A program made the position numbers. This document shows positions 58,001-61,000 of a stretch of 64,000 nt of DNA, one piece after another; within the stretch, counting starts at the first letter, position 1; every line of letters begins with the position of its first letter. Source of the DNA: Escherichia coli (GTDB lineage Bacteria; Pseudomonadota; Gammaproteobacteria; Enterobacterales; Enterobacteriaceae); the NCBI RefSeq assembly GCF_003991155.1, contig NZ_CP031295.1; one strand, 5' to 3'.

Positions 58001-61000
58001 CACGGATGTGCAGATTGCAGAGCGTACTAAGGCAACGGTGACAACGGATAATGTTGCCGCCCTGCGTCAGGGCACATCAGGTGCGAAAATTCAGACCAGT
58101 ACTGAAACAGGTAACCAGCATAAATACCAGACCCGTGTGGTCTCAAATGCAAACAAGGTTAACCTGAAATTTGAAGAGGCGAAGCCTGTTCTCGAAGACC
58201 AGCTGGCCAAATCAATTGCAAATATTCTCTGATTATCTTCCGGAGGCTGGTCTGACCGGCCTCCTGACTGACGCCTCGCTTTGCTCGTTGTCCAACCCCG
58301 GAAAGAAATAAAATAAATTTTATTTCTCCCCGGCGTTTCCGAAATAAATATGAAAACAATGAGCGGTTGTGCAAATTCTTTGTGCGACCGTGAAGTGTTG
58401 CCGGCGAAGCCGGAATTTAACGGTTATTAATCTTTTCATCATTAATAATCAGTCCGACTGACTTTCTTTCTTCGGAATATCATCATGAGTTTTAACGCAA
58501 AGGATATGACCCAGGGCGGTCAGATTGCGTCCATGCGTATCCGCATGTTCAGCCAGATCGCCAATATCATGCTTTACTGCCTGTTTATTTTTTTCTGGAT
58601 ACTCGTTGGTCTGGTTTTATGGGTAAAAATAAGCTGGCAGACGTTTGTGAACGGCTGTATTTACTGGTGGTGTACCACGCTGGAAGGTATGCGGGATTTA
58701 ATCAGGTCCCAGCCGGTCTATGAGATCCAGTATTACGGCAAAACCTTCCGGATGAACGCTGCTCAGGTACTGCATGATAAATATATGATCTGGTGCGGAG
58801 AGCAGCTATGGTCCGCATTCGTTCTGGCCACAGTTGTGGCACTGGTTATTTGCCTGATTACCTTCTTTGTTGTCTCCTGGATTCTGGGGCGTCAGGGTAA
58901 ACAACAGAGCGAAAATGAAGTCACAGGTGGTCGTCAGCTGACAGACAATCCGAAAGACGTTGCCCGGATGCTGAAAAAAGACGGCAAGGACTCCGATATA
59001 CGGATTGGCGACCTGCCGATTATCCGGGATTCCGAAATCCAGAACTTCTGTCTGCACGGCACGGTCGGGGCCGGTAAGTCGGAAGTTATCCGTCGTCTGG
59101 CCAACTACGCCCGTCAGCGTGGAGATATGGTGGTGATTTATGACCGTTCAGGGGAATTTGTTAAAAGTTACTATGATCCCTCCATCGATAAAATCCTGAA
59201 TCCGCTGGATGCCCGCTGTGCCGCCTGGGATTTGTGGAAGGAGTGCCTGACACAGCCGGATTTTGATAATACCGCGAACACGCTGATCCCGATGGGCACA
59301 AAAGAGGACCCGTTCTGGCAGGGTTCAGGACGTACCATTTTTGCGGAAGCGGCGTACCTGATGCGTAATGACCCCAACCGCAGCTACAGCAAACTGGTGG
59401 ACACACTGCTTTCCATCAAAATCGAAAAACTGCGTACCTTCCTGCGTAATTCACCGGCGGCCAACCTGGTGGAAGAGAAAATTGAGAAAACGGCGATTTC
59501 CATCCGTGCTGTGCTGACCAACTACGTGAAAGCCATCCGTTACCTGCAGGGGATTGAGCATAACGGTGAGTCTTTTACCATCCGTGACTGGATGCGTGGT
59601 GTCCGGGAAGATCAGAAAAACGGCTGGCTGTTTATCTCGTCGAATGCCGACACCCATGCCTCCCTGAAGCCGGTGATCTCCATGTGGCTGTCCATTGCCA
59701 TTCGTGGTCTGCTGGCAATGGGAGAAAACCGTAACCGTCGTGTGTGGTTTTTCTGTGATGAGCTACCCACGTTACACAAACTGCCGGACCTGGTGGAGAT
59801 CCTGCCGGAAGCCCGTAAGTTCGGTGGCTGTTATGTGTTTGGTATCCAGTCCTATGCCCAGCTGGAAGATATCTACGGTGAGAAAGCGGCTGCCACGCTG
59901 TTTGACGTCATGAACACCCGTGCCTTTTTCCGTTCTCCCAGCCATAAGATTGCAGAGTTCGCTGCCGGTGAGATTGGTGAGAAAGAGCACCTGAAAGCCA
60001 GCGAGCAGTATTCCTACGGTGCTGATCCGGTACGTGACGGGGTATCGACCGGTAAGGATATGGAGCGCCAGACGCTGGTCAGTTATTCCGACATTCAGTC
60101 TCTGCCGGATCTGACCTGTTATGTCACCCTGCCCGGACCGTATCCGGCAGTAAAACTCTCTCTGAAATATCAGACACGACCGAAGGTCGCTCCGGAGTTT
60201 ATTCCGCGTGACATCAACCCGGAAATGGAGAACCGTCTGAGTGCCGTACTTGCCGCAAGGGAAGCAGAAGGTCGTCAGATGGCCAGCCTCTTCGAACCGG
60301 ATGTGCCGGAAGTTGTTTCCGGAGAAGACGTGACTCAGGCTGAACAGCCGCAACAGCCGCAACAGCCGCAACAGCCGCAACAGCCGCAACAGCCGCAACA
60401 GCCGCAACAGCCGGTGTCTTCTGCCATCAACGATAAGAAGTCAGATTCAGGTGTGAATGTTCCGGCAGGGGGGATCGAGCAGGAGCTGAAAATGAAACCG
60501 GAAGAAGAGATGGAACAGCAACTGCCACCCGGGATCAGTGAATCCGGTGAAGTGGTGGATATGGCCGCTTATGAGGCATGGCAACAGGAAAATCATCCGG
60601 ACATCCAGCAGCAGATGCAGCGTCGTGAAGAGGTGAACATTAATGTGCACCGGGAGCGTGGGGAGGATGTTGAGCCGGGAGATGATTTCTGATGATGAGT
60701 ATCGCGCAGGTCAGATCGGCCGGAAGTGCCGGTAACTATTATACCGACAAGGATAATTACTATGTGCTGGGCAGCATGGGAGAACGCTGGGCCGGCAGGG
60801 GGGCTGAACAGCTGGGACTGCAGGGCAGTGTCGATAAGGATGTTTTTACCCGTCTTCTGGAGGGAAGGCTGCCGGACGGAGCGGATCTAAGCCGCATGCA
60901 GGATGGCAGTAATAAGCATCGTCCCGGCTACGACCTGACCTTCTCCGCCCCCAAAAGTGTCTCCATGATGGCCATGTTAGGTGGCGATAAGCGCCTGATT

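Follow-up and report, generated by a model that had tools for sequence, protein, structure and literature searches.

A perfect 9-bp coding repeat that probably forms a slippage-variable, mostly near-neutral QQP spacer in the C-terminal domain of TraD

traD and its repeat array

The window, that is the whole stretch of 64,000 nucleotides of the Escherichia coli contig NZ_CP031295.1 that we analysed, contains an F-like tra region in which the following features are relevant here.

58485..60692, plus strand: traD, encoding the F-type type IV coupling protein, 735 aa (translation, plasmid annotations, Pfam, TrwB structures)
60692..64000, plus strand: 5' part of traI (relaxase/helicase), continuing past the window edge (ORF start MMSIAQVRSAGSAGNYY; annotation in CP059926.1)
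36250..36633, plus strand: traM, encoding the relaxosome DNA-binding protein, 127 aa (ORF; annotation of a near-identical record)
60343..60413, plus strand: perfect 9-bp tandem array of 71 bp and 7.9 copies, AACAGCCGC (TRF, shuffles)

The traD ORF has matches in at least 5,000 plasmid records, where the annotation reads "type IV conjugative transfer system coupling protein TraD". Its translation displays two N-terminal hydrophobic segments and a Walker A motif (GTVGAGKS), and Pfam identified TraD_N at aa 32-128 (E 1.5e-34) and TrwB_AAD_bind at aa 172-561 (E 4e-117), the TrwB structures 1e9r/1gl6 aligning with aa 161-573 (E 3e-47). Hence, the protein combines the TraD_N membrane region with the TrwB/VirD4-type nucleotide-binding domain of F-type (MOBF/MPF_F) coupling proteins. 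The stop of traD and the start of traI share bases (TGATG), and CP059926.1, which carries an identical traD, is annotated in the order TraT, traD, traI. This traT - traD - traI order, together with a cognate traM whose annotation was taken from a record 99.6% identical over window positions 14001-39000, is that of an F-like tra operon. Since sopABC and aerobactin genes are present in the window, it is not R1 and looks like a ColV-like IncF plasmid.

With TRF, we found a maximal run of period 9 at 60343..60413 with 100% matches and a score of 142. Seven head-to-tail copies of CAGCCGCAA (60345..60407) are followed by CAGCCG (60408..60413). Position 60345 is codon position 1 of traD codon 621, so that the coding part (60345..60413) reads QP(QQP)7, i.e. 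the 23 residues of TraD codons 621-643. An earlier note on this DNA had described a near-perfect repeat encoding QP(QQP)6 and ending at 60404. That description was one unit (9 bp) short, and the array is perfect. The 18-nt double unit gave 6 matches against 0.00 expected from 100 dinucleotide-preserving shuffles, and no other stretch of the 64 kb contains three or more perfect units (at least 27 bp, periods 4-30).

Copy number of the repeat in F-like plasmids

We counted the repeats directly in 18 fetched alleles, in which the n of QP(QQP)n was 1, 1, 3, 3, 4, 4, 5, 5, 7, 8, 9, 11, 12, 17, 18, 20, 26 and 28, the array being perfect in 18/18. For a larger comparison, 58 plasmids were sampled evenly from 3,978 matching ones, and their spans are given as unit differences from the window rather than as n since, upstream of the tract, the CCA-unit lineage has 9 bp less. 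Fifty-seven of the 58 differed from the window by an exact multiple of 9 bp, with -7 and +20 units as the extremes, and the sample comprised 18 in-frame length classes; the span of one record (H91) was not a multiple of 9. In all in-frame length variants traD was intact and annotated. The earlier note had expected repeat number to vary between F-like plasmids, and both the range from n=1 to 28 and the 18 in-frame classes in 58 bear this out; with the comparison that it proposed now run, the invariance that would speak against it was not seen.

Variation was also found on identical backgrounds. First, alleles with n=3, 4, 7 and 12 had 0 SNPs in 2,139 flanking bases, and the n=17 and n=20 alleles had the same 3 SNPs in common over these bases. 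Second, plasmids that are 99.9-100% identical over 14 kb had an implied n of 2, 3, 4, 5, 6 or 11, with the repeat as the sole indel. A count can also be common to many independent isolates of a lineage, n=4 being found in 34/41 records with identical traD. On a larger scale, a clonal partner of the window with another repeat number was sought over 25 kb, but owing to the mosaic tra region the best match did not exceed 98.8%. Differing n without flanking SNPs and across nearly identical 14-kb segments, together with the purity of the arrays, supports the proposal that the tract is slippage-prone. Identical head-to-tail units with a copy number that is polymorphic among near-identical plasmids are what defines a coding VNTR.

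We asked how far such differences may come from assembly or sequencing, that is from repeats that collapse or expand when short reads or noisy long reads are assembled. The array does leave such traces: many database TraD "partial" proteins begin or stop inside it, contigs end 26-29 nt into the repeat, the protein P0030 from a 125-kb contig is garbled in the repeat and at its C-terminal end in the manner expected of indel errors, and the H91 span does not fit the 9-bp unit. Owing to this disruption of assemblies, some public repeat counts may be wrong. However, as the origin of the copy-number variation an artefact is very improbable. Indeed, the 57 complete plasmids that were off by exact multiples of 9 have an intact and annotated gene, one count recurs across many independent laboratories and isolates, and apparent replicates have equal spans (76,462 bp each for CP079774/CP079778 and 70,092 bp each for CP097428/CP097432). 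Moreover, the published F and R1 alleles were already unlike, with 5 versus 23 residues (PMC3245843). Separately, a protein search with the 171-aa C-terminal domain was rejected as a family-wide QQP count: as scoring was limited to the 8,000 candidates with the most words in common, it returned mostly truncated TraD fragments, unusable as a distribution, although these brought the breakpoint effect to light.

The arrays fall into two unit types, CAACAGCCG and CAACAGCCA, which are a single synonymous position apart and each encode QQP. This bears on whether the repeat acts as DNA or RNA, as a protein-binding array, a promoter or regulator of traI, a structured element or an antisense start. In favour of such a role, traI begins 280 bp downstream of the tract, and an antisense ORF of 211 aa (59772..60407, minus strand) has its TTG start within the repeat. 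However, QQP is kept while the unit differs only synonymously between lineages (CCG/CCA/CCT), and distant TraDs keep the Pro-rich character of the peptide and not the DNA sequence. A promoter/terminator scan at the tract found none on the plus strand, with counts not above those of shuffles, and folding of the repeat on either strand was no better than in shuffled controls (z = +1.24 and +0.15). We thus regard a DNA- or RNA-level role as extremely unlikely. As a gene candidate, the antisense ORF was rejected in its own right: its TTG is the reverse complement of a CAA codon, and it lies wholly inside the strongly supported traD frame.

A predicted disordered spacer between the ATPase core and the TraM-binding tail

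The part of TraD that carries the repeat comprises the following features.

60204..60689, plus strand: TraD C-terminal domain/extension (CTD), aa 574-735, without Pfam domain and without solved homologue
60309..60512, plus strand: predicted disordered, hypervariable low-complexity spacer with the repeat, TraD aa 609-676 (AlphaFold2, 7-sequence alignment)
60645..60689, plus strand: C-terminal 15 residues of TraD, the TraM-recognition/discrimination motif (translation; function from literature)

The Pfam/TrwB-homologous core ends at aa 561-573 and the QQP tract occupies aa 621-643, 48 aa past the ATPase core and 92 aa short of the C-terminus, so that its placement in the C-terminal extension by the earlier note is confirmed. 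A structure search with the CTD returned no solved match, the TrwB core alone being matched. In an AlphaFold2 model of the CTD built on 7 sequences only (mean pLDDT 60), pLDDT was below 50 at query residues 45-66 and 68-112 (TraD 609-676), and helices at query residues 15-39 and 129-153, with a block-mean pLDDT up to 89, flank this spacer. In an alignment of 7 diverse TraDs, the spacer was the sole non-conserved stretch of the CTD and the acidic tail that ends TraD (...EPGDDF) was conserved. Across the TraD family, the spacer position varies strongly in both length and composition.

In F TraD, the CTD is described as unstructured and 148 residues long (PMC10939261), and TraM is bound by the last ~8 TraD residues (PMC10939261, PMC12117103). 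Loss of the last 15 residues lowers transfer 10^4-5-fold (PMC10939261, PMC12117103), whereas transfer drops only ~10^1-1.5-fold when all of the CTD but these 15 residues is removed, and this non-tail part measurably aids substrate recruitment (PMC10939261). The earlier note had the C-terminal extension contacting the relaxosome. This stands for the last 8-15 residues (PMC10939261, PMC12117103) and not for the repeat itself: the TraM-contacting tail is 85-92 aa downstream of the repeat, which lies in the predicted disordered spacer.

Together, these data make it likely that the array is an in-frame coding VNTR encoding a mostly near-neutral, slippage-variable QQP spacer in the disordered TraD CTD. 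This spacer, which is predicted to be unstructured, separates the ATPase core from the conserved helices and the TraM-binding tail that follow it. Units would be gained and lost via strand misalignment (slippage) during plasmid replication, with a less probable contribution from short-homology unequal exchange. With a unit of three codons, no frameshift arises and the tether only lengthens or shortens. A proline at every third residue would exclude the segment from helix and sheet, and the QQP segment should instead be an extended, polyproline-II-like flexible tether. At ~3 Å per residue when fully extended, it would span ~16 Å for n=1, 70 Å for n=7 and 270 Å for n=28.

Such a spacer would only have to give the tail and the helices of the CTD access to TraM and to the relaxosome at oriT, and high mutability would then have the polymorphism as its mostly near-neutral by-product. 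From the fact that F, with n=1, and R1, with n=7, are both established as conjugative plasmids, we infer that repeat length is largely tolerated by selection. In the literature searched, a functional comparison of TraD repeat numbers was not found.

The range up to n=28 and the rapid turnover are also compatible with diversifying selection.

An adaptive reading of the array, which we consider unlikely, is that of a contingency-like tuning knob: repeat length would be under diversifying or fluctuating selection, with high mutability itself selected for, and tether length would alter relaxosome docking, substrate selectivity, ATPase regulation or the TraD-dependent entry of male-specific RNA phages such as R17. 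The many length classes, the rapid changes on identical backgrounds and the purity of long arrays up to n=28 would fit this, as would the contribution of the non-tail CTD to substrate recruitment (PMC10939261). Variation of the TraD C-terminus, including QQP length, has moreover been raised to account for the R17 sensitivity of F versus R1, and phage resistance has been proposed as a driver of T4CP diversification (PMC3245843). However, an experiment that ties repeat number to a phenotype was not found in the literature searched. That F and R1 are both established at such different n also argues against a tuned length, the predominance of n=4 among records with identical traD resembles drift with moderate mutation and not rapid switching, and purity and variability are predicted by slippage alone. 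Somewhat more doubtful still is the strong form of this idea, in which the array is an evolvable in-frame "length dial" with n=1 to 28 kept by selection and not by drift. If true, its high slippage rate would allow fast retuning of TraD reach and, through it, of transfer efficiency or substrate promiscuity, or escape from the male-specific RNA phages that depend on TraD.

With a near-neutral, slippage-variable spacer as the preferred reading, the array is a textbook case of an in-frame length polymorphism that is driven by slippage and sits in the disordered linker of a protein central to conjugation. Its biological importance is modest. That the QQP region is variable is already known, having been published in 2011 (PMC3245843), and the length polymorphism is probably of low consequence. 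In practice, the fast evolution of the repeat makes it a marker for outbreak tracing, able to tell apart IncF plasmids that are otherwise the same, provided that it is read from long reads or PCR only. It is also a recurrent breakpoint at which short-read assemblies cut traD into "partial" genes, and a functional transfer system can thus look defective. If length does affect transfer or RNA-phage sensitivity, the repeat would offer a simple natural handle on the TraD tether that couples the relaxosome to the secretion channel.

Comparison with known systems

The closest precedent is the "QQP motif" described by Lang et al. 2011 (Mol Microbiol 82:1071) as a variable region in the C-terminal extensions of F-like TraDs, with QPQQP in the F allele versus 23 residues in the R1 allele (PMC3245843). 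These authors also suggested heterogeneity of the TraD C-terminus as a possible reason why R17 phage infection differs from plasmid to plasmid (PMC3245843). The tract in the window is in the same gene and at the same C-terminal position, is made of the same Gln-Gln-Pro repeat and has 23 residues like R1; as in the motif, sequential repeats precede the TraM interaction domain and their length differs between related plasmids. The tract in the window thus does not differ in kind from the published motif. In the literature that we searched for traD repeat variation, only Lang et al. 2011 mentioned it. Beyond that study, our data extend the range to n=1 to 28, identify pure DNA arrays of two synonymous unit types, and show that counts differ at zero flanking SNPs and that the array is a recurrent contig breakpoint.

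At the QQP position, Klebsiella (pKpQIL-like) and Serratia TraDs have a non-repetitive Pro/Ala/Ser/Thr-rich spacer. Both kinds of spacer share the same site, between the blocks "...AREAE..LFxPD" and "GGxEQEL...LPPGI..SGEVVDM", and the Klebsiella spacer is up to ~100 aa long, a length comparable to that reached by long QQP alleles. TRF found no DNA tandem repeat in the Klebsiella/Serratia spacer, which should therefore not be length-hypermutable.

Simple-sequence-repeat contingency loci resemble the traD repeat in their presumed slipped-strand mechanism and in a rate well above that of point substitution. In contrast to them, the traD repeat does not switch on and off and is not in a promoter, and the 57 in-frame variants keep traD intact. 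Since the changes are all in frame, we describe the tract as a length-variable linker and not as an on/off switch. A phase-variable on/off contingency locus was accordingly rejected as a candidate: the 9-bp unit is three codons, traD stays intact and there is no promoter at the tract.

Finally, the X region of Staphylococcus aureus spa consists of 24-bp in-frame repeats that are used in typing. Like spa-type VNTRs, the traD array has units that are a multiple of 3, a frame-preserving polymorphism among close relatives and a location in a spacer rather than in a catalytic part. Unlike spa, it lies in the cytoplasmic domain of a conjugation ATPase, has a 9-bp unit and forms pure rather than mosaic arrays.

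The repeat and its host gene

The window carries a perfect tandem repeat within the gene traD. The features on which the analysis draws are the following:

60343..60413 (+): perfect tandem repeat with a 9-base period, 71 bp, 7.9 copies, 100% matches, TRF score 142
58485..60692 (+): traD ORF, 735 aa, identified by Pfam, TrwB structure alignment and the annotation of matching plasmids
36250..36633: traM
approx. 17200..25200: iucABCD (aerobactin siderophore) and receptor gene iutA, then IS1, as annotated in a record with 99.6% identity over 14001-39000

In the register used by the earlier note, seven copies of CAGCCGCAA at 60345..60407 are followed by CAGCCG at 60408..60413. 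Since codon 621 starts at 60345, the encoded peptide is QP(QQP)7, that is 23 residues over codons 621-643. The earlier note was thus right about a tandem repeat in traD, but its (QQP)6 ending at 60404 is one unit short of the actual (QQP)7 ending at 60413, and the array that it called near-perfect is perfect. The tract is no chance feature: its 18-nt double unit was observed 6 times against 0.00 expected from 100 dinucleotide-preserving shuffles. No second perfect run of at least 3 units (at least 27 bp, periods 4-30) was found in the 64 kb. Small imperfect tandem repeats occur at 2886..2929 (15 bp x3), 7661..7712 (21 bp x2.5), 26571..26618 (19 bp x2.5) and 57333..57367 (15 bp x2.3).

The ORF has the defining features of a TraD coupling protein. 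The protein contains the Pfam domains TraD_N (aa 32-128) and TrwB_AAD_bind (aa 172-561), its residues 161-573 align with TrwB crystal structures, and its translation includes the Walker A motif GTVGAGKS. At the DNA level, hits were obtained in at least 5,000 plasmid records, almost all of them classed as conjugative MOBF/MPF_F, with the region annotated as traD. The gene order traT, traD, traI is annotated in a plasmid with an identical traD, and in the window traI (MMSIAQVRSAGS...) begins at the traD stop codon. An antisense ORF (59772..60407, -, 211 aa) lying wholly within traD was rejected as a mechanical artefact, its TTG start in the repeat being the reverse complement of CAA.

Along the window, iucABCD-iutA and IS1 are followed by sopAB with a 12 x 43-bp sopC-like array, then by ssb, psiB and hok, and then by the tra operon. 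Given the aerobactin operon and iutA, as annotated in the matching record, the window looks like part of a ColV-like IncF virulence plasmid, neither R1 nor F itself. The 43-bp array (28900..29415; 12.0 copies, 91% matches, with an inverted repeat TGGGACCACGGTCCCA in the unit) lies just downstream of sopA and of a ParB-family gene annotated in the record 99.6% identical over 14001-39000, and we take it to resemble the sopC partition centromere of the F plasmid. The distal 14 kb (50001..64000, traF to traI) is, repeat aside, 100.0% identical to many plasmids, while the best match of the 25-kb tra segment (39001..64000) is 98.8%, which suggests that the tra region is a recombinational mosaic.

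Length variation among F-like plasmids

As the earlier note had expected, repeat number differs between F-like plasmids. By counting directly, we found QP(QQP)n in 18/18 fetched traD alleles, with n = 1, 1, 3, 3, 4, 4, 5, 5, 7, 8, 9, 11, 12, 17, 18, 20, 26 and 28; the two n=1 alleles are of the F-type QPQQP, and the n=28 allele has 86 residues. A 471-bp query spanning the tract then gave matches in 3,978 plasmid records, from which 58 were sampled evenly for a comparison of length. The difference from the window was an exact multiple of 9 bp in 57 of the 58, ranging from -7 to +20 units over 18 in-frame length classes. Repeat number was therefore invariant neither among the 18 alleles nor among the 58 sampled plasmids. 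One traD copy, L008 (CP115334.1 132258-134437), is 99.9% identical to the window's and lacks 1 bp upstream of the tract (5' flank of 1,859 bp vs 1,860 bp), in a record without traD annotation there; the copy is a pseudogene by frameshift unless the deletion is an error of sequencing.

Length variation of this kind could arise as an assembly artefact. Short-read assemblies, k-mer-based Logan contigs included, do break within the array: contig termini fall 26-29 nt inside the repeat (L023-L028 at position 1-30, L029 at position 300-325), one TraD database protein (P0030) is garbled across the repeat segment, and, as a result of such breaks, hundreds of 'TraD, partial' entries start or end in QQP (P0014 with 304 members, P0019 with 438, also P0020 and P0063). 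However, the differences are exact multiples of 9 in intact and annotated genes, the same counts come back in isolates of independent origin, and F and R1 differ in their published sequences, so that an artefact is ruled out as the main explanation. In draft genomes, the breakpoint alone can nevertheless give traD a truncated appearance. Many partial pSLT-type TraD proteins of Salmonella (P0043; P0053, 201 members) begin exactly at 'QQPQ...', and the one complete pSLT-like allele read has QPQQPQP, too short for breaking an assembly; some pSLT-type plasmids may have longer arrays.

The array changes quickly. Where the 2,139 bases of traD outside the repeat showed no substitution, alleles had n = 3, 4, 7 and 12, which supports the description of the tract as slippage-prone; a one-SNP allele had n = 11, and two alleles with the same three SNPs had n = 17 and n = 20. 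Across 41 records with traD 100.0% identical outside the repeat, n was 3 (3 records), 4 (34), 7 (2), 11 (1) or 12 (1). Furthermore, the repeat was the only indel in 40 complete E. coli plasmids that are 99.9-100% identical to window 50001-64000, with implied n = 2, 3, 4, 5, 6 or 11. Thus, array length turns over faster than point substitutions build up across several kilobases. Instability is not so high that each isolate differs: n=4 predominates in one widespread lineage, and spans were equal within two replicate-looking pairs of equal-length records (CP079774/CP079778 and CP097428/CP097432).

All complete arrays counted were perfectly pure. Their units are of two types. The window's lineage has CAACAGCCG, and CAACAGCCA belongs to a lineage whose flanks have diverged and whose upstream segment is 9 bp shorter; only the third, synonymous base of the proline codon distinguishes the two. 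CCA units end in a CCG unit in one contig fragment, and one n=1 allele reads CAG CCA CAA CAG CCT. Such purity, with units specific to a lineage, is expected if a short seed expanded and contracted repeatedly. That unit types differ only synonymously also argues against a tract acting at the DNA or RNA level, and neither a promoter or terminator signal nor an unusual fold was found at the tract.

Strand slippage during replication, the established mechanism for short tandem repeats, would add and remove units, and because one unit is three codons it should never frameshift traD. The tract would then be a length-variable tether and not a phase-variable switch. It has the defining features of a coding VNTR and, as there is no on/off switching, lacks that of a phase-variable contingency locus.

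A variable spacer in the C-terminal extension

The tract lies 48 residues downstream of the TrwB-like core and 92 residues short of the C-terminus, hence in the C-terminal extension of TraD (CTD), where the earlier note had placed it. We aligned the CTDs of 7 diverse sequences, from the window, a pSLT-like Salmonella plasmid, 2 Klebsiella plasmids, Serratia and 2 metagenomic relatives. A conserved RLSAxLAAREAE..LFxPD is followed by a hypervariable proline-rich low-complexity stretch where the QQP array sits, by a conserved GGxEQEL...LPPGIxxSGEVVDMxAYExW, by an invariant QRREEVNIN and by an acidic tail. At the array position, the pSLT-like protein has QPQQPQP only, the Klebsiella TraDs (L020, L021) have a ~100-residue Pro/Ala/Ser/Thr-rich low-complexity linker with no DNA tandem repeat underneath, and in the Serratia relatives (P0047, P0048) this linker is rich in Pro/Ala/Val. 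On this alignment, the array is positionally equivalent to the non-repetitive Pro-rich spacers of other clades.

From the same alignment, AlphaFold2 gave confident helices at TraD 579-603 and 693-717 (block-mean pLDDT up to 89) and pLDDT <50 over 609-676, tract included. The spacer is thus predicted to be disordered, with AlphaFold2 supporting rather than decisive given a shallow input of 7 sequences. Proline at every third residue would bar regular helix or sheet, and the segment should form an extended, flexible, polyproline-II-like spacer of ~3 Å per residue when fully extended, that is an estimated ~16 Å at n=1, ~70 Å at n=7 and ~270 Å at n=28.

Variation in spacer length is probably tolerated for the most part, and the polymorphism would mainly be a by-product of mutability: conjugation is established for both F (5 residues) and R1 (23 residues), the same position is taken up in other clades by Pro-rich sequence that is unrelated and differs greatly in length, and the CTD outside the tail has a modest quantitative role. 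The CTD is described as unstructured, and removing the last 15 TraD residues lowers transfer 10^4-5-fold while the remaining CTD adds only ~10^1-1.5-fold (PMC10939261; PMC12117103). As TraM is bound by the last ~8 residues, the contact with the relaxosome attributed to the extension holds for its tail and not for the repeat (PMC10939261; PMC12117103). Adaptive tuning of TraD by repeat length seems unlikely. Lang et al. 2011 (PMC3245843) considered TraD C-terminal variation, QQP length included, a possible basis of F-versus-R1 differences in R17 infection, and proposed that phage resistance drives coupling proteins to diversify.

Relation to the known QQP motif

Apart from the one-unit correction in length, the observation of the earlier note is confirmed, and its interpretation, variation and C-terminal location, is supported. 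The tract is a variable region of F-like TraD already known as the 'QQP motif' from Lang et al. 2011 (PMC3245843; Discussion and Fig. 8). What is added here is quantitative, namely the range of n = 1 to 28 and perfect purity with two synonymous unit types, together with variation on zero-SNP backgrounds, the positional equivalence with non-repetitive Pro-rich spacers of other clades and the array as contig breakpoint. In length, the QQP region of R1 TraD (23 residues) equals the window allele, whereas that of F, QPQQP, has 5 residues (PMC3245843).
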